49,492 bases of DNA from a virus: the IMG/VR virus record IMGVR_UViG_3300022748_000007. The stretch is one strand, 5' to 3'. Positions 8,015-49,246 of the stretch are shown one piece after another. Both the position numbers and the translations under genes were made by a program. Position 1 is the stretch's first letter. Each line of letters opens with the position of its first letter. The notes under the pieces are model-generated. The model ran no database searches, was not told the origin of the DNA, and saw only the letters and a list, made by a program, of their open reading frames with translations.

Positions 8015-8021
8015 TTAACCT

Positions 8022-8045
8022 GGGGGGACTTGTTCCCCCTTTTAT
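8022..8045 (+). terminator. Intrinsic terminator after the capsid gene
   Basis: GGGGGA-cttgt-TCCCCC hairpin followed by TTTTAT. Confidence 0.7.
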
Positions 8046-8056
8046 AAGGAATTAAT

Positions 8057-12383: not shown

Positions 12384-12562
12384 TGGCAACAATTGACGCC
12401 ACAGATGCCCGACTGTCTTCTCACGAAGAGATTTGTGCCTTACGATATGAAGTTATAAACGGTCGCCTTAAACGTCTTGAATCAATCCTCATCATTGCAT
12501 GTGGAACGCTTCTTTGCGGAATGGGCGGAATAATTATGACTTTTTTAACACACAGTAAATAA
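12383..12562 (+). CDS. Small membrane protein (59 aa, below the ORF-track cutoff)
   Basis: TAATG overlap with the cupin stop. Translates as MATIDATDARLSSHEEICALRYEVINGRLKRLESILIIACGTLLCGMGGIIMTFLTHSK, with one C-terminal TM segment. Confidence 0.4.
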   Translation: MATIDATDARLSSHEEICALRYEVINGRLKRLESILIIACGTLLCGMGGIIMTFLTHSK

Positions 12563-12563
12563 T

Positions 12564-26053: not shown

Positions 26054-26689
26054 TTACTCAAGTTCATTAACCATCTCCAAGATATTAGGATAGTGTTGTT
26101 GTAGGGCCTTATAAATAGCCACAGCAACCTCTCGGTGCTCTTTCTGTGTTGAGTAGTCCATGCGTACATCTAAGTAATGCAGCCAACTACGCAATGTACC
26201 TGTCATGTATAGTCGCGTTGTTGTGTTACCTTCGGGTAATACAGCTCGTGCCACTTCCTTGGCAATACCTTCTGATAAGGCCCACTTGTAAACTTTTGTA
26301 GCATGCTCAATAAGGTCTGCTTGGGCACGTTTCCACATGTCATCAAGCTCTCTATCTTCGTTGAGTAAACTACTTTGTCGATTGGCTTTATCTTGTAGTC
26401 GTGTCTCTCGAATTTCAAAGTTGGTTGCTTCTGCATAACGCTGACTAAACTCCTGAAAGCTAAATGAACGGTGACGCACAATTTGATGGGCAATGTCTCG
26501 TGTGGTTTCAATCTCCACACAAGCACTTACCATTTCAAATGGACTCCAGTGTTTATTCTTGACTAGGTACTTGAGCAGCTTTGGTGCGGTTTCGACGTTG
26601 TTTTGGTTGGCAGGATTGCTCACACGCGCCATTTGCGCAACCATGTTCTCCCCGTCGGGCGTTGTCCAGATTAGTTTCACTTTGCTCAT
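26054..26689 (-). CDS. thyX: Flavin-dependent thymidylate synthase
   Basis: 211 aa. ThyX signature RHRSFSFQEFSQRY. AAGGAA RBS. Confidence 0.9.
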   Translation of the reverse strand: MSKVKLIWTTPDGENMVAQMARVSNPANQNNVETAPKLLKYLVKNKHWSPFEMVSACVEIETTRDIAHQIVRHRSFSFQEFSQRYAEATNFEIRETRLQDKANRQSSLLNEDRELDDMWKRAQADLIEHATKVYKWALSEGIAKEVARAVLPEGNTTTRLYMTGTLRSWLHYLDVRMDYSTQKEHREVAVAIYKALQQHYPNILEMVNELE

Positions 26690-26825
26690 TACGTTCCTTA
26701 AAAATTACATACAGACTAAATACCGACAAGATTGTGGCAAACATAGCAATCCAATAGTTTGGAGTAATGTTTGCAAGGAGAATTAAACCCCAAAAATTTA
26801 CATCGGTGGTACTAGCACATTTCAT
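26553..26825 (-). CDS. Two-TM membrane protein whose reading frame runs 137 nt into thyX
   Basis: 90 aa from MKCASTT, ATGA-coupled to the upstream gene. There is no stop until 26553, so the 3' end overlaps thyX out of frame. Confidence 0.3.
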   Translation of the reverse strand: MKCASTTDVNFWGLILLANITPNYWIAMFATILSVFSLYVIFKERNEQSETNLDNARRGEHGCANGACEQSCQPKQRRNRTKAAQVPSQE

Positions 26826-27184
26826 TTTGTTTCCTTCCAACGGTCGTCTAAGTCTGGACGAGTTTTAGATAAATTTGATAAGAACATCCAGCAACAACCA
26901 AGATGGTCAATGTGAGGTAAACCACTTTCAGGGTCAGTGTCTTCACCTCGTTGGATAGCCATAAGATGACGCAACATGGCAGCAGTGAGGCGAGAATACT
27001 CAATACCATTTCGCCAATTGTTGGCAGCATATTTCTTAGCTCCAAATGTTAATACCTGTGCAAGGCTTTCTAAGGCCTTAGCATCAAGCAAATCCATACG
27101 AGGCTTCTCACCATCGTACTTCATACCCTTGGCCCCTTCAGGAGCCTCCTGTGCATATGTTTTAATATTGTCTTCAGTGTGCAT
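26822..27184 (-). CDS. MazG-like dATP/dGTP pyrophosphohydrolase-domain protein
   Basis: 120 aa from MHTEDN (an alternative start exists at 27226). Conserved block KYDGEKPRMDLL...FGAKKYAANNWRNG...RHL. Confidence 0.55.
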   Translation of the reverse strand: MHTEDNIKTYAQEAPEGAKGMKYDGEKPRMDLLDAKALESLAQVLTFGAKKYAANNWRNGIEYSRLTAAMLRHLMAIQRGEDTDPESGLPHIDHLGCCWMFLSNLSKTRPDLDDRWKETK

Positions 27185-27293
27185 AATGTTTACAGGCCAC
27201 GATTTTAACACCGTTCCATGTTTCAATTACAGGCATGGTATCAAAGGGTAAGTTTGAACAATCTTGTTTGTTATTCTTACAGTTGGTACACAT
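27174..27293 (-). CDS. Small Cys-rich ORF (39 aa)
   Basis: MCTNCKNNKQDCSNLPFDTMPVIETWNGVKIVACKHYAH. AAAGGT lies 5 nt upstream. Confidence 0.35.
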   Translation of the reverse strand: MCTNCKNNKQDCSNLPFDTMPVIETWNGVKIVACKHYAH

Positions 27294-30759: not shown

Positions 30760-30788
30760 ATTATACACGAGTTTTTAACCCATGTCAA
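30760..30788 (-). promoter_or_regulatory. Consensus sigma70 promoter upstream of the SSB-like gene
   Basis: Minus strand reads TTGACA-tgggttaaaaactcgtg(17)-TATAAT. The -35 element overlaps the stop codon of the HNH gene. Confidence 0.7.
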
Positions 30789-31240
30789 CTAAATCTTTGC
30801 ATTTTTCTTAAATTACAGATATATGCAGCAGACATACCTAATTTTTCAGAAAGTTCTTTTGGAGAACCTGTAGATTTTTTAGCTATTTCTCTCTGCTCAT
30901 CTGTAAACTTTGCATTTGGGTTTCGTTCTCCTTTTACACGATTTCTGATAACTTTATGTTGCATATTATCGTTATGAGTTCCTAGCACTAAATGTTCTGG
31001 ATAAATACATGAGGGATTATCACATTGATGTAATACATGCATACCTACAGGAATCTCCCCAATCCATCGTTCATAGGAAACAGTATGGGCTGTCCTGTTT
31101 TTACCTTTATACCAGATACGTCCGTAGCCATTAGCATCTTTTCCAGCAGTCCATTCAAGACATCCTGTTTTAGGATTATCTTTAGAACGTTTAAAGAGTT
31201 TATTTTCTACATCTCCACCTTTAATATACTCTGCCCTCAT
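30785..31240 (-). CDS. HNH homing endonuclease
   Basis: 151 aa. Motif NGYGRIWYKGKNRTAHTVSYE...HVLHQCDNPSCIYPEHLVLGTHNDNMQH. ATGA overlap with the polymerase C-fragment. Confidence 0.85.
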   Translation of the reverse strand: MRAEYIKGGDVENKLFKRSKDNPKTGCLEWTAGKDANGYGRIWYKGKNRTAHTVSYERWIGEIPVGMHVLHQCDNPSCIYPEHLVLGTHNDNMQHKVIRNRVKGERNPNAKFTDEQREIAKKSTGSPKELSEKLGMSAAYICNLRKMQRFS

Positions 31241-31950
31241 GTGAACTTCTCCATTGACTTCATATTAGGACCATACTTAGATTCGCAAGCCATGGGCACA
31301 GTCCAATTATAATTAAACACAGACTGTATACGACTAGGCAAATCAGCAAACACACTGTCAAAGATATCTCGAAGCTCGCCAAGATGGGAGGACTTAGCAT
31401 CGAGTACAATGCTATCGTGGACAGTAGAAATAAAGTCACAGGGGATTCCAGCATCCGTAATCCTTTTGTAGGCCATGATGCGAGCGAGCATCATAACATC
31501 AGCACCAGTGCCTTGCACGGGATAGTTTGTAAGAGTTGTCCAAGGTACTTTAAGTTCTCCTCTATAGTCTCGCTTGGGGGGACAAGACCAACTGCGTCCC
31601 ATTGGTCCGACGATGGCGTTGCCACCCATGACACAATCTTTCCATCTTTGATGACAAGAGTTAATGCCTGTATATTTTGCATAGAATTTTTCATTCATGT
31701 CGTCCCAGAAATCGGACTTAGCGGATACATGCATAAAGTCAGGGTCATTAGCAAAGCTCCAGCCACTACCACGATAAATGGTACGAAAGAGAAAGATTTT
31801 TGCAATGAGGCGACTAGGGAGTCCGAAAGCTTCTTGATTTTTTGCGTGAGTATCTTCACCTCCTAAGATTTCTTCAATACCAACTTTGTCTTTAGCTAGT
31901 TCCAGCAATGTACGCCATTCAAGCTGGCTGGCGTCGCATTGGATTAACAT
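31237..31950 (-). CDS. Family-A DNA polymerase, C-terminal fragment (motifs A, B, C)
   Basis: 237 aa. Motif A DASQLEWR, motif B RLIAKIFLFRTIYRGSG, motif C STVHDSIVLD, plus YPVQGTGADV. Confidence 0.9.
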   Translation of the reverse strand: MLIQCDASQLEWRTLLELAKDKVGIEEILGGEDTHAKNQEAFGLPSRLIAKIFLFRTIYRGSGWSFANDPDFMHVSAKSDFWDDMNEKFYAKYTGINSCHQRWKDCVMGGNAIVGPMGRSWSCPPKRDYRGELKVPWTTLTNYPVQGTGADVMMLARIMAYKRITDAGIPCDFISTVHDSIVLDAKSSHLGELRDIFDSVFADLPSRIQSVFNYNWTVPMACESKYGPNMKSMEKFT

Positions 31951-32135: not shown

Positions 32136-32244
32136 TCTTATTTCTGTTCCTTTCAGAGATAGCCTGTTCCTCTACTGAGCCTACTTCATACTTACCATTA
32201 GCCTCATAAGACCAATCTCTCAATGCCCATGGAACATTAGTCAT
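32128..32244 (-). CDS. Mini-ORF inside the polymerase split (38 aa)
   Basis: MTNVPWALRDWSYEANGKYEVGSVEEQAISERNRNKND. Its ATG overlaps the polN stop (ATGACTAA). It is the 3' third of track ORF 32128..32352. Confidence 0.3.
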   Translation of the reverse strand: MTNVPWALRDWSYEANGKYEVGSVEEQAISERNRNKND

Positions 32245-33373
32245 TGTATTTGGAGATAAAGATGTCTTGGAGTTCTGAAGCAAAGTTTTGGAGGTTTGGC
32301 TTCGAGCTACTGAGACGTCCTGTTTGCGCTGTTGTTTGGTTAAAGTTGCCATGCAACATCCCTTCTTCCCAATTCATTTCCTTACGGAGTTTCACAAGTC
32401 CATTGTAGTATGTACCGTTGAGCTTCTCAAGTTTGGAAAGCTCAAGAATCATGTTCACAATGGTTTTGTTACCCTTAAGCTTACGCAACGTACCTTCGTC
32501 TGTTGCAAAGTTCCCTAGCTTTGCCATGGCAGAACCTTTGAGAGGTTCATAAAGACGCGGTAGGGCATGCTCAATGATTATGTTTTTGTACTTGGGCTGG
32601 CCTGCTTTGGCTCCTGATTTGAAAAACCCAACATGCTCTTTACTGTCCTGCTTAACCACACCACCATAAAGAAAGGCAGAAAGATGGTCATTAGAGGCAA
32701 AATTAATAGGAACGTTGGGATAGATAGCGGCGAGTTTTCCTTTAAGCGTTGATATTTTGTCATCGACCTCCATGGCTCTGCTTGAGCAAAGCTCTTCATC
32801 GAATGGAATGCCATTGGCTTCCATCTCTTGTAATATTTTTAAATCCTGACACATTAGGAAACACAGTTTAACTTGGGCAGGAGTCATTAGCTTTCGTTGT
32901 GCATGGTAACAAGCAAGTGTTAGCTCGGCGTCTCTAGTCGCATAAGGCTCCAGTACCTCCCAAGGGATGGCGTCTGTGTTAATTCCTTTATCCCAATACT
33001 CAAGCTTCACAACATCCAACTTTGTTTCCAGCCCATAACGCTCACAAGTTTCATTAAGGCTAGGGAATCGGTTGGTTTGGTTGGAAAGAATGAACTCAGC
33101 AATCTGCACATCCCAGATTTGCTTTTCCTTGAGTTGATAGACCCCGACTTTTAGAAACCACGCGAGGTCGAATTTGAAGTTAAAGCCAATAACTAAATCT
33201 GTTCCTGCAATAAGCCCATGCTCTAACGCATACAATGCGGCAGGGGTGGCTTTATCAGCACCCGCAGCACCCAAATCATTGGCATAGGAGTAGCAAACAA
33301 GTTTGTTTCTGGCGTCGTAAGGATTACCCTTATTCCATATTGTAGTCTCGCTGTCCAGCGCTAACAATTTCAT
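32237..33373 (-). CDS. Family-A DNA polymerase, N-terminal fragment (3'-5' exonuclease plus thumb)
   Basis: 378 aa. Exo I LALDSETT, Exo II GFNFKFDLAWF, Exo III YATRDAELT. Ends at FISKYND, immediately before motif A. Confidence 0.9.
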   Translation of the reverse strand: MKLLALDSETTIWNKGNPYDARNKLVCYSYANDLGAAGADKATPAALYALEHGLIAGTDLVIGFNFKFDLAWFLKVGVYQLKEKQIWDVQIAEFILSNQTNRFPSLNETCERYGLETKLDVVKLEYWDKGINTDAIPWEVLEPYATRDAELTLACYHAQRKLMTPAQVKLCFLMCQDLKILQEMEANGIPFDEELCSSRAMEVDDKISTLKGKLAAIYPNVPINFASNDHLSAFLYGGVVKQDSKEHVGFFKSGAKAGQPKYKNIIIEHALPRLYEPLKGSAMAKLGNFATDEGTLRKLKGNKTIVNMILELSKLEKLNGTYYNGLVKLRKEMNWEEGMLHGNFNQTTAQTGRLSSSKPNLQNFASELQDIFISKYND

Positions 33374-33582: not shown

Positions 33583-33770
33583 TGTACTTCTGGTGGAATA
33601 TATTTTAAAATCCAAGGTTGTAACACGTCTTTAGGACGGTAACCAAATAACAAACCTTGTTCATCTTGAAGGTTAGCAATGCAAATTACTAAGTCTTCTA
33701 GAGAGGCTTGGTTAAAGCCTTTTGATTCAACGATAAACTTATATGTCTTCGTATCTTGCGATGTTGGCAT
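33579..33770 (-). CDS. Hypothetical protein
   Basis: 63 aa from MPTSQDT, preceded by AGAGG. Overlaps the helicase 3' end. Confidence 0.45.
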   Translation of the reverse strand: MPTSQDTKTYKFIVESKGFNQASLEDLVICIANLQDEQGLLFGYRPKDVLQPWILKYIPPEVQ

Positions 33771-34821
33771 TGATGATAACCTCTTTCTTACCATGTCGTA
33801 GGTCAGGAATGGAATCTGCATCACCCATCAGCTTGTTCTTACTAGCATGAAGGAAGCGTAGGTTCTCATAGCCTGCGTCTGCAACCTTACCAATACCAAT
33901 AATCCAGTCAGCCTCAGCTTGCTTCGATGTTTTGGCGTTAGCTACGTTAGCCATTGTCAGCCACTTCTGACCCTCCCCCGTTCCATCGGCTTGACAGACA
34001 GCAATAACAGGACAATATTCCTTAGCCAGTTCCCTAGCCCATTGATAAATTTGTCCGAGACGTAAATCCTCACGGTCATTTGTAAATCCATGAATCTTGT
34101 CAATCTGGTCAAAGATGACAAGGGAGGGTTGGTATTGCTTACAAACTTTCTCAACCATAGAACGTGATATGATTCCTTCTTTGAGAATCTTATGCTTGCC
34201 CTTGGTCTTGGACATATAAGCATCACGGTTGGCTGTTAGGTTGGCAAACAGCTGAGTCATGTTGCAACCAAGACTAGCTTGATAGCAACGTAGTTTTACT
34301 TTATCCCCCTGTTCCTCGTTGTTAAACCAAAGAATCGGGCCAGCATCTTCAGAGAGCTGCTCTGCCATGTACGTCGTTTCTGAAGCAAGGAATGTAGTCT
34401 TTCCAGTCTCTGGACGCGCAAAGATAAAGCCGAAATCTCCCTTTCGCAGGCTTCCAAGCATTTGGTTAAGAGTATTGAGTCTCCAGCGGAGGCCGGGCTT
34501 TTTGATTGTGTCATTAGCTAGTTCTTCGAGGTCATCAGAGATGAACTCAAACTCTTCCCCTTTCTCTTGTTGTTCTTCAAGCTCAAGGTAGGACTCGAGG
34601 AGTCCACGCATTTTCTCGGGTTCAAGCTTGCCTTCAGTAACGTCATAGGCAGCAAGGGATATTTCCTTGAGCTGCTTATTGGCAAGAATCGACTGGATTA
34701 GTTTCGCCGTGGTGTCAGGACTAGCTTCTACATTATTGAGCTGGTCCAAGACACCTAGATAATAATCCTTGTCTTTAGAAGACGAGGCAAACAAAAGGTT
34801 TGCCAAGTCACTCGTGGTCAA
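33739..34821 (-). CDS. Replicative DNA helicase (DnaB / T7 gp4 helicase-domain type)
   Basis: 360 aa as listed in the track (TTG start). Walker A ARPETGKTTF and Walker B LVIFDQID. The frame stays open for 53 more codons up to 34980, next to an AAGGAG (see findings). Confidence 0.85.
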   Translation of the reverse strand: MTTSDLANLLFASSSKDKDYYLGVLDQLNNVEASPDTTAKLIQSILANKQLKEISLAAYDVTEGKLEPEKMRGLLESYLELEEQQEKGEEFEFISDDLEELANDTIKKPGLRWRLNTLNQMLGSLRKGDFGFIFARPETGKTTFLASETTYMAEQLSEDAGPILWFNNEEQGDKVKLRCYQASLGCNMTQLFANLTANRDAYMSKTKGKHKILKEGIISRSMVEKVCKQYQPSLVIFDQIDKIHGFTNDREDLRLGQIYQWARELAKEYCPVIAVCQADGTGEGQKWLTMANVANAKTSKQAEADWIIGIGKVADAGYENLRFLHASKNKLMGDADSIPDLRHGKKEVIINANIARYEDI

Positions 34822-35270: not shown

Positions 35271-35421
35271 ACAACTCTTTCTGCATATTTGTCAATTCGA
35301 TAATTGCCTGCTGTTCTTCAGGAGTTTTGGGTTTCTTCTTGAAGATTAGGTCATAGTTTTCATCAAACTTTTTCTTGTCTGTTGGGCGTTGTTTGTCGCC
35401 CTTGCCTGCTTCACGTGCCAT
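35254..35421 (-). CDS. Small basic protein (55 aa, below the track cutoff)
   Basis: Hand-translated as MAREAGKGDKQRPTDKKKFDENYDLIFKKKPKTPEEQQAIIELTNMQKELYEKNR. Overlaps both neighbouring genes. Confidence 0.5.
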   Translation of the reverse strand: MAREAGKGDKQRPTDKKKFDENYDLIFKKKPKTPEEQQAIIELTNMQKELYEKNR

Positions 35422-35791
35422 TCAGTCTCTCCTTGATACGTTGACGGTTGAGTTCCATTGCTTCTGGTGTAGGATGCCAATCACCCCACCACTCGATGGG
35501 AATATCAAACACAGTTGGTGGAGGTGCTGGAAAGTTTACTACACGACCACGTTTCTGACATTCTGCAACTAAGGCATAATAACGTTTACATAGCCAACAG
35601 GTCTTGTCGTAGAAGAATCGAGTGTGTCCAGTACCTAGCTTGTATCTTATTGGATTACGTTTGTCGTTAGGTTGTTCACCTCTTTCAATTGCTTTCTGTA
35701 TTTGACCAAACAAACGAGGAAGCTCACGATACTCAGCACCTAGATGCTTGTCCGTTAGTTCCTCAACAGGGACACAGTTAATACGGGTCAT
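35411..35791 (-). CDS. denV: Pyrimidine-dimer DNA glycosylase (T4 endonuclease V-like)
   Basis: 126 aa from [28 protein letters not shown], collinear with T4 DenV ([28 protein letters not shown]...FFYDK). ATGA overlap. Confidence 0.85.
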   Translation of the reverse strand: [126 protein letters not shown]

Positions 35792-35994
35792 AGAGCACCC
35801 CATGTAAACAATGCTAACCAGAAGGATAGGAAAGAACATACTGCTGCTACTACAGGCCTAGCAGAGGTTCCATAAACAATACCTGATAGGGAATTGTCTG
35901 TTAGAAACCACCAAATCATGTCAACAATACAAATCATTGTTGGAATGTTTAGTATAAGGATGAAGAGACCCGCTAAAATTGCAAGATATTTCAT
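35788..35994 (-). CDS. Small multi-TM membrane protein
   Basis: 68 aa, strongly hydrophobic. Confidence 0.5.
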   Translation of the reverse strand: MKYLAILAGLFILILNIPTMICIVDMIWWFLTDNSLSGIVYGTSARPVVAAVCSFLSFWLALFTWGAL

Positions 35995-36230: not shown

Positions 36231-36434
36231 TCATGTATGGCGACGCTCTCGTTTGTTACACTTATTGCAATGGCGGCTTTGTTCATACATACCATTGTCT
36301 TGCCAATTACCCCACTCATGGCGACACCAATCATCCTCATACCATCGTCGAAAGGGTTCCTTAAACACTGTCCACAATGCTAAACAAAGAAGGGTGAATG
36401 CAAATACCCCCATTGTTAACCAAAAATCATTCAT
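36231..36434 (-). CDS. Small membrane protein with a Cys/His-rich tail
   Basis: 67 aa. N-terminal TM segment, then WCRHEW...HCNKCNK. Confidence 0.5.
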   Translation of the reverse strand: MNDFWLTMGVFAFTLLCLALWTVFKEPFRRWYEDDWCRHEWGNWQDNGMYEQSRHCNKCNKRERRHT

Positions 36435-37186
36435 TGTATAAGTCCTTTAATGTCTTCAACAGAATACTCCTTAGGGTCTTTGTCTGTTAACAAAGTTTTA
36501 GTTTCCATGCCAAGAAGCTTGGCTTGGTCTGCTATGGCTCTACCTTCACGCCACTTGTCTGCATCAAGCCATACCACCAAGCGATTATACAGGGGTTTAA
36601 AGCCTGCAATTTGTTCTCTTGGTATGCTGGTACCCAACAATGGTTTGGCATCGGCTACGGCGCTCACCTTGAGTGCAGAGACAGCATCCTCGGTTAGTAC
36701 AAGGACTCCACTACTTCCTCTATTTCCAGAAGTATCTGCACCATAGATGGTGCGGGACTCTGACTTTTCACCTGTGTTGTAGTATTTCGCTTTGCTTGCC
36801 CGTTTAGGGTTAAAGTTTTTGGCTTGGATACAACAGAGGTTTCCGTCTTCGTCGTAGAAGGGCATGAGGAGTTGTTCCCAGAAAGGGCTCCAGCAAAATC
36901 CTGCTCGTAAACAGGACTCCATTGGGATGGAATATTGTGCAAGCCATTCGGATGCAGGGTTCCCGAGTATGTTTGTGACATCGTCAGGTAGCTGTAAGCC
37001 ATTATGTCCTCCATTTCGATTTGTGCTTGTTTCAGTTTGCCTATCGCGTTCTCCTACAAAAGGGCTACGGTCGCCACGTTCACGATAATGACAGCCGAAA
37101 CACCAAGCACTGCCATCGGAATAGCGTGCAAGGTTGTCTCGACTACCACACTTAGGACAGGCTTCGTGCTTTACGAATTTACTCAT
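36431..37186 (-). CDS. DNA primase (zinc finger plus TOPRIM)
   Basis: 251 aa from MSKFVKHEACPKCGS...CFGCH. TOPRIM acidic motifs LVLTEDAVSA and VWLDADKWREG. Confidence 0.85.
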   Translation of the reverse strand: MSKFVKHEACPKCGSRDNLARYSDGSAWCFGCHYRERGDRSPFVGERDRQTETSTNRNGGHNGLQLPDDVTNILGNPASEWLAQYSIPMESCLRAGFCWSPFWEQLLMPFYDEDGNLCCIQAKNFNPKRASKAKYYNTGEKSESRTIYGADTSGNRGSSGVLVLTEDAVSALKVSAVADAKPLLGTSIPREQIAGFKPLYNRLVVWLDADKWREGRAIADQAKLLGMETKTLLTDKDPKEYSVEDIKGLIQ

Positions 37187-37370
37187 CTTGATTGAAGTCA
37201 TCAAAGGCAACTTCAAGAACGAGTTTGTCACCTTCTTTTAGAGTGGTATGTACATCTATCCATCGTTGATGGTCAATGCCCCCTTCACGGGTCTTATAGA
37301 TTAAAACCGCTTTGGAAATAATGACACGTGGAGGACGACGAGCAATTTTATTTAAGACAGTTTTACTCAT
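37179..37370 (-). CDS. Hypothetical protein
   Basis: 63 aa from MSKTVLNK. Its ATG overlaps the upstream stop. Confidence 0.5.
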   Translation of the reverse strand: MSKTVLNKIARRPPRVIISKAVLIYKTREGGIDHQRWIDVHTTLKEGDKLVLEVAFDDFNQDE

Positions 37371-37542
37371 CTTCTTCATCCATGTCTTCATCTTCGTCCG
37401 CTGCCACACCGTCCACAGTAGCAACATCGTCGCTAATAGTAGATAGGCACTTATTACACATGTCCACATATTCACCACTGTTCTTAAATTTACGGACTGA
37501 TTCCGCAGTTGTCAAGATAACGTCACAACAAACGCACTTCAT
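37363..37542 (-). CDS. Zinc-ribbon protein with a polyacidic tail (59 aa, below the track cutoff)
   Basis: Hand-translated as MKCVCCDVILTTAESVRKFKNSGEYVDMCNKCLSTISDDVATVDGVAADEDEDMDEEDE. ATGA-coupled at both ends. Confidence 0.5.
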   Translation of the reverse strand: MKCVCCDVILTTAESVRKFKNSGEYVDMCNKCLSTISDDVATVDGVAADEDEDMDEEDE

Positions 37543-38297
37543 ACTTCCACCTCTTCCACTGCTGTTGTTGCTGCTGCAATTTGACTAACCAAATTAGCAC
37601 GAATATCTGCTGGCAAATTAGAACACCATGCTGAACAACCATTATTGTGGATGGTTGAGCCACCAATAGCAGCAATATCTACTTCCTTCATACCATTGTA
37701 CTGTGAGTTATAATAGTACCACGTATCAATTGGAAGTTTGAATCCCAGATGTTTGGTGAACAGTTTAGCATCCTGTGTAAAGCTACGCTCAACGGTGTTC
37801 AATGGAGACTTATCTGAATACAAATCATCCCACGAAGAAAACTCCACGTTGTTGTTACATACACGCAACATCATGGTCAACAAAGAGATGTAGTATGTAG
37901 ATTCCCACATCTTGTTTGGAATACGGATAACAACACTCTTATCGTCCTGTTTCCAGCAACGAATGGATGTTCCCATGTCAGCTTTCAATCGAACATTGAT
38001 TGCTTTCTCTACGTTACCAATGAACTGGTCTGCTTTACCTACCTCGGTGAGCAAGATATACAAACCCCATTTGTTGAACTTCACGGTGTCATTCTTGAAA
38101 CCATAGACAGTGAACACATGGCCCTTACGCAAGGCAACCAAGTCATTGAAGTAGTCCTTACACTTCATAAGCTGAGCTTGTGAGGTAAGGGTGTCTTTCT
38201 CACGATACATGATGCGCCAACGCAGAGGATTACTCTGTGCTGATTCTGTGAGAATACCTGTTTGGTTGTGTTCTGGTTTGATGGTGATATTAAACAT
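37539..38297 (-). CDS. Hypothetical protein, first (downstream-most) member of the amidoligase cassette
   Basis: 252 aa from MFNITIK. The track start at 38600 would overlap the ATP-grasp gene by 310 nt. The chosen ATG lies 5 nt past the ATP-grasp stop. Confidence 0.55.
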   Translation of the reverse strand: MFNITIKPEHNQTGILTESAQSNPLRWRIMYREKDTLTSQAQLMKCKDYFNDLVALRKGHVFTVYGFKNDTVKFNKWGLYILLTEVGKADQFIGNVEKAINVRLKADMGTSIRCWKQDDKSVVIRIPNKMWESTYYISLLTMMLRVCNNNVEFSSWDDLYSDKSPLNTVERSFTQDAKLFTKHLGFKLPIDTWYYYNSQYNGMKEVDIAAIGGSTIHNNGCSAWCSNLPADIRANLVSQIAAATTAVEEVEV

Positions 38298-38997
38298 GGC
38301 TGATGATTGCTTGTAAGTATTTGTTGACGTTGCTACCTTGAATTCCGGGGGCGGAGTTAACTTCGATGACAAAGAGTTCGGATTTTTTCTCATTAAATCC
38401 AATGTCAACGCCTCGGAAATCTGACGGAGAAACTGCTGCGGCTCGCAGAGCGAGTTCCCTGAGACCTTCGGGTTCGTCTGACACAGACTGTACGAATACG
38501 TATCCGTTAGCCAAGTTTCGGATTTTGGTGTCTCGTTCACCCGTAAATTCTCGTCGACGTTTTTTCTCCACAACTGCGACCACTTGGTTTTTAAAGACAT
38601 GGATTCGGAACTCCCGTTTCTTTTTCTTGTACAAAGTGTACACTGGACAAGCTACGAAGTCATCGGTTGACTCCATAACAACGATGCCTTTACCGCAGGA
38701 CGCGTTAAGGTACTTACGACCAAAGATGGTTTGTCCCTCGGCAAGACGAGCCTTGGCCCACTCGGCATCAGTTGAGAATTCGAGGGCTGGGATTTCCTGC
38801 TCACGGAACCAGTTGTATTGCTGAACTTTGTTGATGCTTTGACCATACTTGAACTGCTTTCGTAGAGGACGAACCTTGGTTGTACGGAACACTTTGCGAT
38901 GATAATAGGTTGATAGACCTTGAGCCATGAGCTTGAGGCTCATGCTTTTAAGGCCTGATTCAGTGCACAATAGTTGAGGCGTCTTTTTCTTTAGCAT
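38290..38997 (-). CDS. ATP-grasp amidoligase (RimK-like)
   Basis: 235 aa with an AGGAG RBS. Motifs CGKGIVV, EFRIHVF and LFVIEVNSAPG. Confidence 0.8.
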   Translation of the reverse strand: MLKKKTPQLLCTESGLKSMSLKLMAQGLSTYYHRKVFRTTKVRPLRKQFKYGQSINKVQQYNWFREQEIPALEFSTDAEWAKARLAEGQTIFGRKYLNASCGKGIVVMESTDDFVACPVYTLYKKKKREFRIHVFKNQVVAVVEKKRRREFTGERDTKIRNLANGYVFVQSVSDEPEGLRELALRAAAVSPSDFRGVDIGFNEKKSELFVIEVNSAPGIQGSNVNKYLQAIISHV

Positions 38998-40222
38998 CTA
39001 AACTCCTACGAATATAGTCATCATCAATAACGGGAGAACCGTCTGGAAGGAAGGTTGTATAAGCAACCTGTTTAATCTTGCCCTTCTTAGGGACAGAGAT
39101 AGGTAGTGGACTTGCATTACCAACAGTAAGGCTCATCTTCTTGGTAGCGGGGTCATAGACCATGTCTTCAATACGACCAGACCAAAGGCGTTCAGTCAAA
39201 TCACCCACATCAAGATTCAACTCTTTTATGTCGATGTTAGTGTGTATAAAATGGTCATGCAGAATATTATCGCTATTGCCCATAAGAGTGATGGCGGTTT
39301 CTCCATCTGCGACTGTTCGGGGATAGGCCGTCTCGATGAAGTCTTCTGCCCAAAACTCGACGCGTTTAAATATGTTCCTGTTGCGAAATCGTTTGTACTG
39401 GTTCTTAGAAAGACCATCTACCTCCTGTTTGTAATTAGTACGCCCCGTCGTAATACCCCGCCCCATACCCACCGTATGATGTGTATGAGGCTTGGACTTT
39501 TTTGGCACAAGCACCTCTTCCGTCATCTTGTTAGCATCCAAGTCAAAGGTTACTAACGTATGCTCAGGAATGGGCTTGATGTCTAAGTCTTTAGCTGTGT
39601 AACCATTACGAGCAAGAATCCAAAACAACATTGGAGCCTCACTAGCAAAGTAATACGCATTGCTTGTCTCAACCATTGACAAGGGACGTTGCGAGTTACG
39701 CAACAAACGAACTTTGTGGGTACGTTGGTCATAGCTTGCTGTGGCATATGCACCTGTCACTTCACCCAACAAGTCTTCCAGAGTGTTACGATAATCTTCC
39801 TCTGTGAAAGCCTTGTGGAAAGCAATGGTGAGTGCCTCGCTATCTACTACTGTATCAGCCAGTTTCTTATGGTTTGTCAGTGTGCCGTTATGCACCATGG
39901 CAAACTCATCGTTAACAACGAACGGATGGGCCGTTTCATCAGAGATTGCACCGATAGTTTTCTTACGATTGTGTCCAATGTAAGCCTTACCGTCAGCCCA
40001 CATGGACTTGGCAATCTTGCTGTTAGGATACTGAGACAAGAACCAAGCTGCCTCATTCGCTTCCTTAGCGATGTGGAAACTGGAATCTTTCTCAGCACCA
40101 ATGATACCCGTGGAATCTTCGCCACGCAAAGCATCCGCATACAGCAACTGATAAAAGCTATCTTCTTGCTGTTTCAACAAACCGTTGTTAGTTTTTAGGA
40201 CTACGCCTACAATACCACACAT
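38960..40222 (-). CDS. Class II (Ntn) glutamine amidotransferase with an uncharacterised C-terminal domain
   Basis: 420 aa. Motifs MCGIVGV, LRGEDSTG, IGHNRKKT, AHPF and MVHNGTL. I recognise no signature in the last ~200 aa. Confidence 0.8.
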   Translation of the reverse strand: MCGIVGVVLKTNNGLLKQQEDSFYQLLYADALRGEDSTGIIGAEKDSSFHIAKEANEAAWFLSQYPNSKIAKSMWADGKAYIGHNRKKTIGAISDETAHPFVVNDEFAMVHNGTLTNHKKLADTVVDSEALTIAFHKAFTEEDYRNTLEDLLGEVTGAYATASYDQRTHKVRLLRNSQRPLSMVETSNAYYFASEAPMLFWILARNGYTAKDLDIKPIPEHTLVTFDLDANKMTEEVLVPKKSKPHTHHTVGMGRGITTGRTNYKQEVDGLSKNQYKRFRNRNIFKRVEFWAEDFIETAYPRTVADGETAITLMGNSDNILHDHFIHTNIDIKELNLDVGDLTERLWSGRIEDMVYDPATKKMSLTVGNASPLPISVPKKGKIKQVAYTTFLPDGSPVIDDDYIRRSLDAKEKDASTIVH

Positions 40223-40231
40223 AATAGTTCC

Positions 40232-41002
40232 TTAGACCAATGACAATTTAACATCAATCAAGTTGTTCTTGATGATGTTGTGAAAGCTAGATTCCAATGC
40301 AAGAATCTTAGGACATTCGGCAAAGATGTATTGCCACCATTGTTTGAGGCGAGCCTCGTCAGTCAATGCTGCGGCAGACACAGTATCTTTCTGAGCCAGT
40401 GTCCACAAACGCTCCAAACAACTCAGCCATTGGCGAGTAAGCTCGGGGTCATCAGTGCCCTGCAAGTGACGGAACTCAATAGTACCAAGCTTGACCAAGG
40501 GAATCAAGTTCAAAGCTGTGTACTTATGCCAACCATCAATCATCGCATTGAGGTTACGATGATACAAAGCAGGCAAGAACGTCTCTGTCAAAGGAACACA
40601 ATGAATGTTACTACGACGCACGGGGTCAACGAATGCAAAGAAGAACTCTTCAAACAATGCATAGAACAATACAATCTGTTTTGTCTGAGCTGGTGTCAGA
40701 GTACGACAGTTGATATGTACGTGGGTAGATGTTCGAGGAGAGAAAGCATCGGTTTTATCGTGATACTCAAGTGTTGCATGGAGTTTCTTGAAACAACCCA
40801 AGAGTGTTTCTTTATCCAGCGGCTGTGAGATAAACTCATAGCCATTGTTACGCAACGAACCGTCAGTCGTCGTGGTAAACCCATGGTAGGAAGGTTCAGG
40901 ATTACGGATGGACTCAATCTCACATTCCATGCCAGCGTAAAATACATCCACCATGTCACACGTATGGCCCTTTAAGTTAAAATGTTTTGCGATATTTGTC
41001 AT
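40232..41002 (-). CDS. Amidoligase_2-type (glutamine-synthetase-like) COOH-NH2 ligase
   Basis: 256 aa. Motifs GMECEIES, DGSLRNNGYEFISQP, STHVHIN and GTIEFRHLQGT. Confidence 0.8.
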   Translation of the reverse strand: MTNIAKHFNLKGHTCDMVDVFYAGMECEIESIRNPEPSYHGFTTTTDGSLRNNGYEFISQPLDKETLLGCFKKLHATLEYHDKTDAFSPRTSTHVHINCRTLTPAQTKQIVLFYALFEEFFFAFVDPVRRSNIHCVPLTETFLPALYHRNLNAMIDGWHKYTALNLIPLVKLGTIEFRHLQGTDDPELTRQWLSCLERLWTLAQKDTVSAAALTDEARLKQWWQYIFAECPKILALESSFHNIIKNNLIDVKLSLV

Positions 41003-41003
41003 G

Positions 41004-41603
41004 TCATGCTACCTTAAACTCTGTATCAGCAGCCAGTTCAAGAAGTTCTGGCTTAAAGATTGGATGACGAACCACTACGAGTTTGTCTTCTGGATTAACT
41101 TCAGCTACCAAGATAGCGTCAGCAAAAATAGCCTTCATGTCAGGAACATAGGCAAAACGGGGAGACAGTACAACGCTATGGTCTTTAGCCTTGTTCAACA
41201 CTGCTTTAGATAAGCTAGGGAAAGCCTGCTTGTTGACAAACTCAGTCAACACATCGAACGTAAGTTCGACAGCATTGACACTACCTGTCTTACCTAGAGC
41301 ATTAACACGTGTGTTGCTGTTGGACAAGCCACGCTGATATTGCTTGGCAGGAACACGCAACAACAAACAAGCACGTTTCTTGTACTGGAAATAGCTCTTA
41401 CTTGGTAGGATGTAGTCTACTTCGTAGGGATGTTCATCAGACAACCACAACTCAAACTCACCACCTGAGGCATCAACACCACGCACAACCTCACTGTTCA
41501 CGTTACGGATGTAATACAAAGTATCACCCGTCTCCTTGAATTTCACATAGGTATTGCGGTAGTAACGATTAATGTCGTCGTGATTACTACTGTTAAAAAT
41601 CAT
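41004..41603 (-). CDS. Hypothetical protein within the amidoligase cassette
   Basis: 199 aa, tightly packed between the two ligase genes. Confidence 0.55.
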   Translation of the reverse strand: MIFNSSNHDDINRYYRNTYVKFKETGDTLYYIRNVNSEVVRGVDASGGEFELWLSDEHPYEVDYILPSKSYFQYKKRACLLLRVPAKQYQRGLSNSNTRVNALGKTGSVNAVELTFDVLTEFVNKQAFPSLSKAVLNKAKDHSVVLSPRFAYVPDMKAIFADAILVAEVNPEDKLVVVRHPIFKPELLELAADTEFKVA

Positions 41604-42358
41604 TTAATGACCTCCAAGTTATATTTGTCCACCAACATCTGAGCAATCTCTTTGTTGTTGTCGTTGATAGCGGCAAGGATGTTATCCTTCTCAGCCATTA
41701 CGTCAAGGTTGTCAACACTTTCCAAGGCACGTTCAGTGTTATTCCACACCCAACGGATAAGTTCGTTCTTGAAAATCCAGAAATTGGACAATGTACGGTA
41801 CTCAACGCCATAAGACTTGCCACGGAAAGCACCAGCTTTACCATACAATTTCTTACGCATTTCACCATTGTCCATCAAGACAGAAGGCACACCCAAGAAC
41901 AAGTCCATTGCACGGATGACAGCAAGTTGGTCTTTAGTTGTCTCGACATGGACATGACCGCCAGCACTACGCATCAATGGATGAGGTGGTTCAGGTTTCT
42001 TGTTAGACTGCTTAGTCCAAGCATCAAAGTCCGGCTCACAGCCGAAGATATGTGCCAATGGATGATGCATCTGGTCTTCAGGGAAGATGATGCAAGACAG
42101 CTTAGAGAAGCTGAGGTTGGGCAAATACTCCTTGGATTTCTCCATCACTTTGTTGATGTGGTCAATAAACTCGTCAGCACTAGCGGCTGGCGGGATGCCA
42201 TATTCAAGGCTTACGTTATCTTCCTGCAATGTGTAACCTTCGGGCATATCAGGAATCTGCATGGGATTCCATTTGTCGGCATTGATATAACCAATGGAGC
42301 TAACAGGACTGCCGTTGGCGTCTTGCAAGAATACTTCGGGGTCAGAACCTAAACGCAT
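41600..42358 (-). CDS. phiEco32-like COOH-NH2 ligase (type 2)
   Basis: 252 aa from MRLGSDPEVFL (the track start at 42445 overlaps the lipoprotein gene). Motifs SAGGHVHVE and YGVEYRTLSNFW. Confidence 0.7.
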   Translation of the reverse strand: MRLGSDPEVFLQDANGSPVSSIGYINADKWNPMQIPDMPEGYTLQEDNVSLEYGIPPAASADEFIDHINKVMEKSKEYLPNLSFSKLSCIIFPEDQMHHPLAHIFGCEPDFDAWTKQSNKKPEPPHPLMRSAGGHVHVETTKDQLAVIRAMDLFLGVPSVLMDNGEMRKKLYGKAGAFRGKSYGVEYRTLSNFWIFKNELIRWVWNNTERALESVDNLDVMAEKDNILAAINDNNKEIAQMLVDKYNLEVIK

Positions 42359-42368
42359 AATATTTCCT

Positions 42369-42758
42369 TTATTTACGACTAGAGGTAGCACGAGGTGCTG
42401 CTGCACGAGGAGCTGGCGCTGGCTTGGGAGCCTGCTGAACAACAACGGTTTTGTTTACCACTGTTGTGTTGCGGGTAACATTATTGCTGCTACTACCACC
42501 GCCTCCCCCGCCACCTGACATCATGTGTCCTAACAACATACCAGTTGCGAGAGTACCTACTCCGCTGTCATGCTGTTGCACTACAACAGGGGCTGGTTGC
42601 TGTACATATTGTACAGGAGCTGGCTGTTGCTGCACTTGCTGCATTGGTTGTTGATAGACCTGCTGCTGAGGAACCTGCTGCTGTACAACAGGCTGAGGCT
42701 CAGGAGCTTTAGAGCAGGCGGCGAGGGCAACTACTGCCAATAACGTAATACGTTTCAT
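42369..42758 (-). CDS. Q/P-rich lipoprotein with a glycine-rich C-terminal region
   Basis: 129 aa from MKRITLLAVVALAAC (signal peptide plus LAAC lipobox). Q/P/V repeats, then a GGGGGGG run. Confidence 0.7.
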   Translation of the reverse strand: MKRITLLAVVALAACSKAPEPQPVVQQQVPQQQVYQQPMQQVQQQPAPVQYVQQPAPVVVQQHDSGVGTLATGMLLGHMMSGGGGGGGSSSNNVTRNTTVVNKTVVVQQAPKPAPAPRAAAPRATSSRK

Positions 42759-42759
42759 G

Positions 42760-42990
42760 TTATGCTTCCTTGGGTTTAATGAATGTTTTGTGATGACGTT
42801 TGAAGTAGGGCTTACCATCTTTATCTACTTCTTCAGTGTGCCACACAGAGGCGTGGAATAGACGACCACCACGAGCCAGCTTATTCAGCTCACGGCTGTC
42901 TCGACGACGCTTAACATAGTCTTCATACGACTCATTAGCCAAGCGCACGGGATTGTGCAGCTTTTGTTGCAATGCAATTTGTTCAGTCAT
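42760..42990 (-). CDS. Hypothetical basic protein
   Basis: 76 aa track ORF. Confidence 0.5.
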   Translation of the reverse strand: MTEQIALQQKLHNPVRLANESYEDYVKRRRDSRELNKLARGGRLFHASVWHTEEVDKDGKPYFKRHHKTFIKPKEA

Positions 42991-43292
42991 TTAACATCCT
43001 TAGAAAGAAATACACACACGAACACCTCATTTTCTCCATGACGGGGATTGAAGCGAGGAGGAGATTGGTACAACAAGATAGCTTTATCGCATAGCTCATA
43101 GTAAGCCCGCTTACAAATATCATTGTTGATAAATGTAGATACAAAATATCCTGTACCAGATTTGACACAATCAAGAGCATCGGAAATATCACCACGCCAG
43201 CGATTGGCATGGTCACTCTCTACAAAAACACCGAGTTCATCAACACCACAGCAATAATTAATTTCTGTGCTATCAGCACAAACATTACTCAT
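42987..43292 (-). CDS. Hypothetical Cys-rich protein
   Basis: 101 aa from MSNVCADS, ATGA-coupled to the upstream gene. Confidence 0.5.
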   Translation of the reverse strand: MSNVCADSTEINYCCGVDELGVFVESDHANRWRGDISDALDCVKSGTGYFVSTFINNDICKRAYYELCDKAILLYQSPPRFNPRHGENEVFVCVFLSKDVK

Positions 43293-43948
43293 GCCCACAC
43301 CTCATTAAACAATAGGTCAGCGATTTGTTGGTTGCAATAGGCAACAAACTTACTATTCTCAGGAGCCCATTCGGGATGACCTTGAATAGCAAAGCCCTTA
43401 ATGTCTGGAAAGAACACCATTTCAGGTTCTTTGAATACATCCTTATTGACTACATCCAGCTCAGTCTCGCCTTGGTATACACGAGACAAAGGTTCAGGAG
43501 TCCAAGCAAGCAGTTCATGGTTAGTGCCACGCAAGTCAAGCATCTGGTGGTGACAAGTAGTGACAGCAAACTTATCACCATCGCTAGTAACTACGTTATG
43601 ACTGCCATTAGTGTGACCACTAACGTGTTGGATAAGCTTACCGCCAACGAATGCACACATGAACTGAGCGCCACGACATACACCAATAATTGGAATACCC
43701 TTGGCTTTGCACAGCTTCATGGCATTCCATTCCCAAACATCACGTTCAGATGGGAGAGTGCCTGCCTGATTCCACTTATGAGGCTGAGCACCATAATAGC
43801 TAGGATGAATGTCTGTGCCACCCCATAGAATGAACGCATCGACGTTATCAAAGCCATGCTTCTTAGCATCAACCGCTTGGTCAAACAGTTGGTCAAAGGG
43901 ACGGATGCTATATCCGTTGCCCCACGGAGAATACGCTAGAGTTTTCAT
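43289..43948 (-). CDS. Class I glutamine amidotransferase / peptidase C26 (gamma-glutamyl hydrolase, PuuD-like)
   Basis: 219 aa. Nucleophile elbow IIGVCRGAQF and catalytic His block IQGHPEW. Confidence 0.8.
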   Translation of the reverse strand: MKTLAYSPWGNGYSIRPFDQLFDQAVDAKKHGFDNVDAFILWGGTDIHPSYYGAQPHKWNQAGTLPSERDVWEWNAMKLCKAKGIPIIGVCRGAQFMCAFVGGKLIQHVSGHTNGSHNVVTSDGDKFAVTTCHHQMLDLRGTNHELLAWTPEPLSRVYQGETELDVVNKDVFKEPEMVFFPDIKGFAIQGHPEWAPENSKFVAYCNQQIADLLFNEVWA

Positions 43949-44367
43949 GCAGGTTTTGCTTCCTCAAAGGTTGGTTTATCTTTGCCAAGATAATTGTAGG
44001 TACATAGGATGTGACTACCCTTATCCTTGCCTGTTAGTGGACGGAACGACACGACAAATGGCATATCATTCTCACGCCATTCATCATTGACAGGGAACTC
44101 TTTGTATGAACGAGAGATACCCACAATGATGACAGCGCCATATTTATTAAAGCCTTTCTGCTCTGTTGGATAGGCAGTGTCACCCGTCTGGAGCTTTACC
44201 TTATTGGATTGCTCACGGATAATATCATCACGGCGTCGATATTCCTCAACCTTAATGCCACGCATCATAGCTTGCTGATGCTCTTGTGGGGAATACCATT
44301 TACCAGCTACAAAGCCATGCAATGGTGGTTCTTTAACCCGAACCGAGGGATAGGATGCTTCAATCAT
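43945..44367 (-). CDS. Hypothetical protein
   Basis: 140 aa with an ATGA overlap. Confidence 0.55.
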   Translation of the reverse strand: MIEASYPSVRVKEPPLHGFVAGKWYSPQEHQQAMMRGIKVEEYRRRDDIIREQSNKVKLQTGDTAYPTEQKGFNKYGAVIIVGISRSYKEFPVNDEWRENDMPFVVSFRPLTGKDKGSHILCTYNYLGKDKPTFEEAKPA

Positions 44368-49217: not shown

Positions 49218-49246
49218 TTGACATTTGTATTCTTTTGTGGTATAAT
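49218..49246 (+). promoter_or_regulatory. Consensus rightward sigma70 promoter (tRNAs and late arm)
   Basis: TTGACA-tttgtattcttttgtgg(17)-TATAAT with an extended -10 TG. Shares the A/T-rich upstream region with the leftward promoter. Confidence 0.75.

Follow-up and report, generated by a model that had tools for sequence, protein, structure and literature searches.

The closest described systems to the locus analysed here are the amidoligase cassettes of the phiEco32-type phages, reportedly predicted by Iyer, Abhiman, Burroughs and Aravind in 2009, among them those of phiEco32 (gp86-gp77), PaP3/LUZ24/DL54 (gp50-gp44), PA11 (gp001-gp009) and CW02 (gp2-gp16). The stretch under study is the IMG/VR virus record IMGVR_UViG_3300022748_000007 (49,492 nt), referred to throughout as the window, whose positions serve as coordinates. 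It carries the same five core families, in the order seen in the phiEco32, DL54 and Alcaligenes types, with a COOH-NH2 ligase, a protein termed here the slot protein and an Amidoligase_2 protein followed by a class II glutamine amidotransferase (GAT-II) and an ATP-grasp ligase, on the same strand, at the same site upstream of the primase and with the same gamma-glutamyl-cleaving partnership. The region is almost certainly an intact, compact copy of the phiEco32-type cassette. That cassette was already predicted in 2009, and the window adds one further example from an uncultured phage. New here are the definition of a core of six parts, namely five enzyme or protein families and the gamma-glutamyl-cleaving partner, the recognition of the 'hypothetical' gene between the ligases as a universal subunit whose modelled fold is unmatched, and sequence-level grounds for preferring a gamma-glutamyl conjugate over a modified DNA base.

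The cassette and its distribution

The six core genes are listed below with their Pfam and PHROG matches.

38290..38997, minus strand: short, basic RimK-like ATP-grasp ligase (Pfam RimK 3.4e-9; PHROG 2599 9.1e-39)
38960..40222, minus strand: class II (N-terminal nucleophile, Ntn) glutamine amidotransferase, GAT-II (Pfam GATase_6 7.4e-15 and GATase_7 6.1e-10, residues ~70-200 only)
40232..41002, minus strand: Amidoligase_2, a GS-like carboxylate-amine ligase (Pfam PF12224 1e-8; PHROG 7469 3e-31)
41004..41603, minus strand: slot protein, core subunit, always encoded between the two GS-like ligases
41600..42358, minus strand: COOH-NH2 ligase type 2, a GCS/GS-fold carboxylate-amine ligase (Pfam PF14395 7.9e-14; PHROG 3815 1.9e-71)
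43289..43948, minus strand: class I GATase-fold protein/peptidase C26, putative gamma-glutamyl-amide hydrolase (Pfam 2.9e-20; PHROG 7218 1.7e-26)

An earlier model-made reading of the same letters (the original prediction) had named these open reading frames (ORFs) among others, and all of those it named were present in the ORF list, on the minus strand and at the coordinates given. Its description of abutting or overlapping genes also holds: neighbours overlap by 1-38 nt or are separated by gaps of <=10 nt, giving one co-oriented block of ~6.4 kb within which no strong terminator was seen. The primase (36431-37231, PHROG 2.1e-25) and a DnaB-type helicase (33739-34821) lie downstream in the same orientation, as had been claimed. 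A profile search of the cassette proteins recovered all five enzyme families above the Pfam curated cut-offs, with far stronger PHROG matches (up to 1.9e-71), and every fold or family call was correct. The motifs quoted for them (MCGIVGV, RGEDSTG, HNR, HPF, HNG, GMECEIES, STHVHIN, GTIEFRHLQGT, LGSDPEVF, GGHVHV, GVEYRTLSNFW, GVCRGAQF, QGHPEW and EVNSAPG) were all found in the translations. The link drawn to the phage systems flagged in 2009 by Iyer, Aravind and co-workers is sound, the same cassette being annotated in phiEco32, PA11 and LUZ24-like phages, and PF14395 itself carries phiEco32 in its family name. In the literature searched, annotation of or speculation about the cassette genes was found and no experimental assignment of substrate or product for the phage versions, in line with what had been stated.

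The window thus holds a PF14395 gene with a PF12224 gene adjacent on the same strand, a RimK-like ATP-grasp gene in the same block, a GAT-II with an N-terminal Cys and a C-terminal extension, and the slot protein between the two GS-like ligases; the block lies upstream of and co-oriented with the primase and helicase genes, and C26 is its gamma-glutamyl-amide-cleaving partner. The proteins are among the shortest of their kind, with 256 residues for Amidoligase_2 (367-391 in phiEco32/DL54), 235 for the ATP-grasp ligase (294-397) and 420 for GAT-II (510-676), and their identity to those of any isolate is at most ~43%. Unlike its phiEco32-type relatives, the cassette has C26 without GGCT, and it additionally carries a lineage-specific 252-residue protein and an inserted lipoprotein.

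Ligases of the GS/GCS and ATP-grasp folds work through acyl-phosphate intermediates. The COOH-NH2 ligase (51.9 bits against a Pfam cut-off of 25) is the best-conserved core gene, with 37 invariant residues across 8 lineages, and Amidoligase_2 (35.8 bits against 22) was found in 91 of the 94 cassette-bearing loci that were compared by protein clustering. The ATP-grasp ligase has an isoelectric point (pI) of 9.8 and matches RimK in the PDB with an E-value of 0.01; against the NCBIfam models for MptN, RimK, CofF and LysX it scores 17-27 bits, below the equivalog cut-offs of 143-350.

The AF2 model of GAT-II (predicted local distance difference test, pLDDT, 84.5) places a GlmS/PurF-like glutaminase domain at residues 1-240, followed by a disordered linker, a compact, beta-rich domain of one helix and five strands at 271-375, and a terminal helix. 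Across 44 homologues the GAT-II motifs show little or no variation; the N-terminus reads MCGIVG, with the nucleophile C2 nearly invariant and the glutamine-binding residues R86, N112-G113 and D127 fully so, as are K241, K242, K273, D294 and E297 in the C-terminal part. The NCBIfam matches to GlmS (8.6e-20) and PurF (4.1e-16) are both below cut-off, and a Foldseek search with the full-length model aligned the N-terminal domain alone (1jxa, 6.7e-15; 1xff, template modelling (TM) score 0.71-0.75). The observation that the C-terminal part carries no recognisable partner signature stands: ~180 residues are without a Pfam family here and in four other lineages, and no Pfam match to a fused acceptor or synthase domain (SIS, PRTase, Asn-synthetase, GltS) was obtained past residue ~200 in these five lineages. 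As modelled, the C-terminal domain is a small beta-rich domain of no known type.

The original prediction had counted the 199-residue product of 41004-41603 as one of 'two orphans'. Neither of the two matches Pfam, PHROG or NCBIfam, but the slot protein is no orphan: it is a conserved core member with homologues in all lineages examined. Its AF2 model (pLDDT 91.2) is mostly beta. Searches of the PDB gave nothing by profile, and the best fold match, to KOW/SH3-like barrels, was not significant (E = 0.05). In BFVD, nine matches were obtained at E <= 0.001, of which one is a close relative (55% identity, TM 0.97) and the other eight are distant, uncharacterised viral proteins (TM 0.57-0.67). The family comprises 795 cluster representatives. 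Four collinear motifs are shared, including a loop R-x-P-x-[KR]-Q-[YW]-x-R-G, and the protein has no recognisable catalytic motif. Homology extends to the same-position genes of the Alcaligenes phage (BLASTP 3e-13, hidden Markov model (HMM) 3e-19), Vibrio BA6 and the Rhizobium phage, and, with a six-member HMM, to Xanthomonas DES1 (4e-6) and Aeromonas 4_4572 (2.6e-5). CW02 gp8 is reached through a fold match to a 190-residue CW02 protein (E = 9.5e-8, TM 0.62) and in turn joins PA11 gp006 to the family (BLASTP 3e-13), while phiEco32 gp85 (1.2e-8) and DL54 gp49 (7e-5) are joined through the Aeromonas protein, a link that profile-profile comparison returned at 92.9% probability (E = 3.6e-7). Matches to DUF2026 were weak, being confined to 5 of 39 members (best E = 0.0035) and offset in register. 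Close relatives in a scan of bacterial genomes were limited to two contigs of 26-49 kb from metagenome-assembled genomes, which are likely mis-binned phages because they carry the cassette and replication genes in phage order. The slot protein is a universal core subunit, modelled with a new, unmatched beta-rich fold, and most likely acts as a non-catalytic scaffold or substrate-presenting subunit.

Searches with the window proteins against 50,697 phage records (tblastn) found GAT-II in 321, the COOH-NH2 ligase in 319, the ATP-grasp ligase in 271 and Amidoligase_2 in 203, the last count being limited by sensitivity. GAT-II and the COOH-NH2 ligase therefore co-occur almost 1:1 (321 vs 319 records), with near-identical genus counts, and a scan of viral contigs seeded with the COOH-NH2 ligase found the latter encoded on at least 555 IMG/VR contigs. 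The cassette is present in ~0.6% of sequenced phages, including members of Bruynoghevirus and Kuravirus used in therapy and in model collections. The suggestion that such a set of genes is out of the ordinary must be qualified to this extent, since with ~320 records and >=555 contigs it is common in phages. The check on gene neighbourhoods showed the same core upstream of the primase in more than eight unrelated phage lineages. The cassette lies upstream of primase/helicase in Alcaligenes phage vB_Af_QDWS535, phiEco32 (Kuravirus), PA11 and Salinivibrio CW02 (both Zobellviridae), Vibrio BA6, Xanthomonas DES1, Aeromonas 4_4572, Rhizobium RHph_N3_19 and the LUZ24-like phages DL54 and UFV-P2, and the ordered core was also found in Bruynoghevirus and Lahexavirus. 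The run of COOH-NH2 ligase, unannotated gene of ~180-225 residues and Amidoligase_2 is kept in nearly all lineages compared. GAT-II and the ATP-grasp ligase follow this run in most of them, GAT-II comes first in PA11, CW02 and BA6, and the order is rearranged further in DES1 and the Rhizobium phage. At the DNA level, megablast with this region found no phage relative; judged by terminase, the closest isolate is vB_Af_QDWS535 (59% identity), and syntenic relatives are many metagenomic contigs of 48-50 kb.

Two further genomes were noted in the course of this comparison. Methylophilales phage MEP401 (L094, 1069-3569) has a reduced system, in which a 546-residue protein with an Amidoligase_2 domain only at residues 325-482 is followed by a 289-residue GAT-II without the C-terminal extension; the COOH-NH2 ligase, slot protein, ATP-grasp ligase and C26 were not detected there by BLAST. 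MW202796.1 (L095), whose large terminase subunit is 50% identical, is represented by an 18-kb locus running from terminase to PolA without cassette genes. An annotated 'antirestriction protein' (7523-8371) is encoded in its early region, upstream of the primase and zinc-ribbon gene, at the place taken by the cassette in the window, and a cytosine methyltransferase gene follows further downstream. Anti-defence cargo may be swapped in at this early region.

Probable gamma-glutamyl chemistry and the proposed pathway

The C26 protein scores 73.4 bits against a Pfam cut-off of 20.5 and has an intact catalytic triad, with the Cys in GVCRGAQF and the His-Pro-Glu in QGHPEW. Its nearest curated relative is gamma-glutamyl-CDP-amidate hydrolase (6.2e-13), at 49.3 bits against a cut-off of 250 and thus short of orthology, and its relatives in the PDB (3fij, 7d4r-type) were deposited as 'probable glutamine amidotransferase'. 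Gamma-glutamyl amides are the substrates of both C26 enzymes (PuuD/SpuA, gamma-glutamyl hydrolase) and GGCT. Among the 94 cassette loci, C26 is present in 87, GGCT in 14 and both in 10, so that one or the other occurs in 91 of 94; the remaining three are contigs that end at the ligase gene, and the figure for evaluable loci is 91 of 91. In the window C26 is present and GGCT was not found. Among Pseudomonas phages, 121 records carry the cassette, to be set beside 105 GGCT and 16 C26 records, which are total counts not matched per record. Because this partnership with C26 or GGCT is constant, gamma-glutamyl conjugate chemistry is favoured, and the pattern in these loci supports a pathway that would pass through, or end in, a gamma-glutamyl amide.

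Gamma-glutamyl groups serve as transient handles in butirosin (BtrJ/BtrG) and ergothioneine (EgtA/EgtC) synthesis and in the Puu pathway. In these pathways a gamma-glutamyl amide is formed by an ATP-dependent ligase, and the group is afterwards taken off by an enzyme of the C26, Ntn or GGCT type. The same folds are paired as in the phage loci: GS-like PuuA with C26 PuuD, GCS EgtA with the Ntn-GATase-fold EgtC, and ATP-grasp BtrJ with GGCT BtrG. However, there is no orthology between these enzymes and those of the phage cassette, every score being far below the equivalog cut-offs. Unlike the handle pathways, moreover, the cassette combines three ligases with a phage-specific subunit and has no decarboxylase, oxidase, carrier protein or tailoring enzyme.

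The reading to which we assign a probability of about one half is that the cassette encodes a cytoplasmic multi-enzyme pathway that would build, amidate and trim a glutamate-containing conjugate on an acceptor other than DNA. The cassette and replication genes would form one leftward operon. Its three ATP-dependent carboxylate-amine ligases (one RimK-like ATP-grasp, two GS/GCS-fold) would each convert a carboxylate to an acyl-phosphate and couple it to an amine, and between them would build a short, amide-linked conjugate containing glutamate on an amine-bearing acceptor. The Ntn amidotransferase would hydrolyse glutamine and pass the ammonia to one of the ligases, converting a carboxylate to a carboxamide, or might instead cleave a gamma-glutamyl amide as EgtC does; these two roles are proposed because GAT-II has no acceptor domain of its own. 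C26, replaced or accompanied by GGCT in other lineages, would then remove or recycle the gamma-glutamyl group, which would behave like a protecting or activating group, while the slot protein would organise the enzymes as a scaffold or present the substrate. No signal peptide-like N-terminus was seen on any cassette enzyme. In proteomics of phage SU10, ATP-grasp, GATase and YtfP/GGCT-like proteins were early products (PMC4281155). As for the final acceptor, a small molecule or peptide is the likeliest, a protein ranks next and DNA comes last.

Several points weigh against this pathway. The ATP-grasp, C26 and GAT-II proteins are all far below every NCBIfam equivalog cut-off, and therefore no specificity can be transferred to them. 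Proteins are common substrates of RimK-family ligases, which speaks for a protein target. That the slot protein is a scaffold is guesswork, and it could be a new kind of enzyme or the acceptor itself. None of the computations identifies a substrate, product or protein partner. Finally, the adjacency to primase in every lineage and the resistance of Kuravirus to restriction-modification (RM) systems (PMC11990801) fit a DNA-linked role equally well.

Another reading takes the cassette for an auxiliary metabolic module whose role would simply be to raise the nitrogen, glutamine or glutathione metabolism of the host in support of phage production, as was proposed for phage ZRK32, which has GATase, amidoligase, 'glutathione synthase' and GGCT genes (PMC10945688). 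That paper gives no enzyme-level evidence, and the enzymes are highly diverged from housekeeping orthologues, with NCBIfam scores all far below cut-off; in addition, the cassette holds the phage-only slot protein and keeps a fixed multi-gene order in strictly lytic phages of many hosts. An auxiliary metabolic role is accordingly considered very improbable.

Of the three roles offered by the original prediction, gamma-glutamyl-type tagging of a host or virion protein (ii) and synthesis of a small peptide-like effector (iii) both remain candidates. A tentative elaboration is that the cassette is a self-contained, phage-specific pathway, with a scaffold of new fold, that may produce an amidated gamma-glutamyl peptide-like effector or host conjugate for use in phage-host conflict, that is, in anti-defence, host takeover or superinfection exclusion. 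A positional hint in this direction comes from the antirestriction gene in the same early region of MW202796, the locus without the cassette. Were a peptide-like effector pathway of this kind to be true, it would be among the most widespread uncharacterised 'natural-product-like' pathways of lytic phages, and its reach would include therapy-relevant Pseudomonas and E. coli phages.

DNA, proteins and the envelope as alternative targets

Role (i), in which amino acids or amines are placed on a base or nucleotide and shield phage DNA from restriction, proved the least supported of the three. In its favour, the cassette always abuts primase/helicase and the replication module, and amidoligase and amidotransferase genes occur together with thymidine-hypermodification genes in some metagenomic contigs (PMC8989533). 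Among 30 minus-strand ORFs of the window that were scanned, which include the small ORFs in part, no match to dUMP/dCMP hydroxymethylase, 5-HMUDK, aGPT-Pplase, TET/JBP or DpdA-like proteins was obtained, and the thymidylate synthase of the window is ThyX. Phage thymidine hypermodification clusters, reportedly described by Lee et al. in 2018 and 2021 and encoding 5-HMUDK, aGPT-Pplase, and PLP and radical-SAM enzymes, resemble the cassette in being phage-encoded and located beside replication genes. They differ from it in their defining enzymes, of which none was found here, and in that the window genome avoids restriction sites.

This avoidance is strong. The window has 5 GATC sites where 118.7 would be expected (z = -18.2) and 4 CCWGG sites where the expectation is ~65, and ten 6-bp palindromes are absent, including GGATCC, AGATCT, TGATCA and TGGCCA. 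The observed/expected ratio of 6-mer palindromes is 0.76, and 0 of 2000 random non-palindrome sets were as low. All 13 of the 13 other cassette loci tested are likewise palindrome-depleted (0.57-0.92, values reached by 0-6 of 2000 random sets), and in Vibrio BA6 no GATC was observed against 43 expected. Restriction-site avoidance marks phages with restriction-exposed DNA, T7 among them, and is weak in hypermodified phages such as T4. The depletion is the pattern of genomes exposed to restriction, which argues against decoration, and the extreme avoidance in the window suggests unmodified DNA and a host range rich in systems targeting GATC and CCWGG.

Data from relatives were also considered. 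In a cassette-bearing Vicosavirus, the comparison of native with amplified DNA by nanopore sequencing revealed nicks only and no modified bases (PMC11780129). The Gordonclarkvirinae are unusually RM-resistant from a cause that is not known, and the authors of the BASEL study ascribe the resistance of Kuravirus to other genes (PMC11990801). The palindrome ratio of the Gordonclarkvirinae cassette locus is 0.72, and such depletion may partly explain the resistance. Given that no pathway enzymes were found, that restriction sites are avoided and that the Vicosavirus nanopore data are as described, global DNA hypermodification by the cassette is unlikely, a verdict confined to global, not rare or site-specific, modification. 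Overall, decoration of DNA or nucleotides is regarded as improbable.

Protein tagging, with the ligases attaching glutamate or a short amidated peptide to a protein of the host or the phage (RimK-style C-terminal polyglutamylation would be one example), is possible but doubtful. The aim of such a tag would be to reprogramme translation, transcription or replication, and C26 or GGCT would trim or reverse it. The RimK-like character of the ATP-grasp ligase fits this idea, and its pI of 9.8 suits an acidic substrate; on the other hand, it scores far below the RimK and LysX cut-offs. The Pup ligase and depupylase are likewise a pair of GS-fold enzymes. The weak fold likeness of the slot protein is to the KOW/SH3 barrels of eIF5A and Spt5. 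Candidate acceptors are an acidic-tailed zinc-ribbon protein encoded two genes downstream (37363-37542), its tail ending in Glu, and three small cassette proteins of the Rhizobium phage with a common GDTEEDI tail. However, the cassettes examined encode no small acceptor or tag common to all, the zinc-ribbon protein tracks the primase and occurs in the MW202796 18-kb locus without the cassette and in MEP401 without the ATP-grasp ligase, and GGCT requires a glutamyl group with a free alpha-amino group, which is typical of small molecules.

Several small proteins touch on this question. The zinc-ribbon protein (37363-37542, minus strand, 59 residues) has a CxxC...CxxC arrangement and a D/E-rich tail, ...ADEDEDMDEEDE, ending in Glu, which is the architecture of LysW, the carrier of RimK-family ligases. 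The RimK and LysX-LysW systems, whose targets are acidic protein C-termini, share a RimK-like ATP-grasp enzyme with the window, whereas LysZ/Y/J/K-like enzymes were not found in it. A role as LysW-like carrier for the ATP-grasp ligase was considered and rejected, given the occurrences in MW202796 and MEP401 named above. The family (cluster c9, 40-54 loci) also occurs in the OM43 phages MEP401/402 and gave no PDB sequence match. Because it abuts the primase in 53 of 54 loci and occurs without the cassette, the protein is part of the replication module and may act as a replisome accessory or DNA mimic; its modification by the cassette is possible but unsupported. A Pup-like tag (disordered, with C-terminal Gly-Gly-Gln/Glu) for the GS-fold ligases was also sought, and no such ORF was seen in cassettes of nine lineages. 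In Rhizobium phage RHph_N3_19 (L009), three paralogues of 78-85 residues (5583-5819, 11405-11659 and 12456-12713), all ending in GDTEEDI, sit among the C26, amidoligase and ATP-grasp genes and are possible ligase substrates or carriers of replisome-binding tails.

In a further reading, the enzymes would remodel cytoplasmic precursors of peptidoglycan or of other parts of the envelope, for example by amidation or extension of the stem peptide (D-iGlu/mDAP), and so block superinfection or change lysis. Stem peptides have a gamma-linked glutamate, and their free carboxylates are amidated in a GATase-dependent manner in some bacteria. A passage in PMC10580990 cites Iyer et al. as proposing that the enzymes modify the cell wall to prevent superinfection, and lipoprotein genes lie in or beside the cassette in the window and in DL54. 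In none of the lineages compared is the cassette joined by a Mur-ligase, transpeptidase or lipid-carrier enzyme, and the lipoprotein is not conserved even among close relatives. Envelope remodelling is on balance distinctly unlikely.

Accessory genes and genome context

Five further genes lie within or next to the block.

37539..38297, minus strand: 252-residue protein (53 metagenomic homologues; 38 of 94 loci)
42369..42758, minus strand: predicted lipoprotein, 129 residues from MKRITLLAVVALAAC (lipobox LLAVVALAAC; PHROG 21570 2.3e-18)
42760..42990, minus strand: small basic ORF of 76 residues, pI 9.9 (73-residue homologue at the same position in the syntenic relatives L002 and L003)
42987..43298, minus strand: small Cys-rich ORF of ~101-103 residues (95-residue homologue at the same position in L002 and L003)
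43945..44367, minus strand: conserved gene of 140 residues, directly upstream of C26 with a 4-nt overlap (24 of 94 loci)

The 252-residue protein is the other of the two orphans of the original prediction. Its ORF extends to 38600, and the start at 38297 fits the 218-285 residues of its 53 homologues. Invariant residues (C46, D48, H217, N218 and G220) include Cys, Asp, His and Asn, hinting at a possible enzyme; assignment as a 2H-phosphoesterase was rejected, the matches in 4 of 33 members being judged spurious as only one invariant His is present. No match was obtained in the 50,697 phage records, the PDB or Pfam, and the genes that occupy its position in the Alcaligenes phage and PA11 are not related to it. 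It is a lineage-specific protein, outside the universal core.

The lipoprotein, with a true start at ~42758, contains eight consecutive glycines and a region of Gln/Pro-rich repeats. It is missing at this position in L002 and L003, the closest syntenic relatives, and is for this reason regarded as an insertion; it is probably not part of the pathway. The lipoprotein of DL54 is annotated just upstream of the cassette. Neither of the small ORFs at 42760..42990 and 42987..43298 gave a family match, the Cys-rich one belonging to cluster c31 (6 loci). The 140-residue protein had no Pfam, PHROG, NCBIfam or PADLOC match and is a possible accessory member of the cassette; the PADLOC defence models gave no match.

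The window as a whole looks like a near-complete podophage-type genome. Its plus arm encodes terminase, portal, capsid and tail fibres, and its minus arm class II ribonucleotide reductase, ThyX, a PF18909 domain, split PolA and HNH genes, a 5'-3' exonuclease, a DenV-like glycosylase, helicase, primase and the cassette. The nucleotide-pool module on the minus strand consists of class II ribonucleotide reductase (23938-25608), ThyX (26054-26689) and the N-domain of a MazZ-like dATP/dGTP diphosphohydrolase (26822-27226; PF18909, 5.3e-32), and the ORFs scanned gave no sign of a PurZ-like gene. On the minus strand, two ORFs share the family A DNA polymerase, which is divided into an exonuclease and N-terminal part (32237-33373) and a C-terminal part (31237-31950) with a 61-residue ORF between them, followed by an HNH_3 endonuclease gene (30785-31240); this split is common to the relatives, in which two clusters are likewise found. 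A T4 DenV-like pyrimidine-dimer DNA glycosylase (35411-35839, minus strand; Pyr_excise 9.4e-15) is encoded between the helicase and primase genes. Divergent sigma-70-like promoters close to consensus were identified at the right end (49173-49145, minus strand, and 49218-49246, plus strand; 12/12 and 11/12 matches, both with an extended -10 TG), and two strong tandem terminator-like hairpins (46945-46884, minus strand) lie downstream of the first leftward genes, which together suggest an early transcription unit ending before the cassette block.

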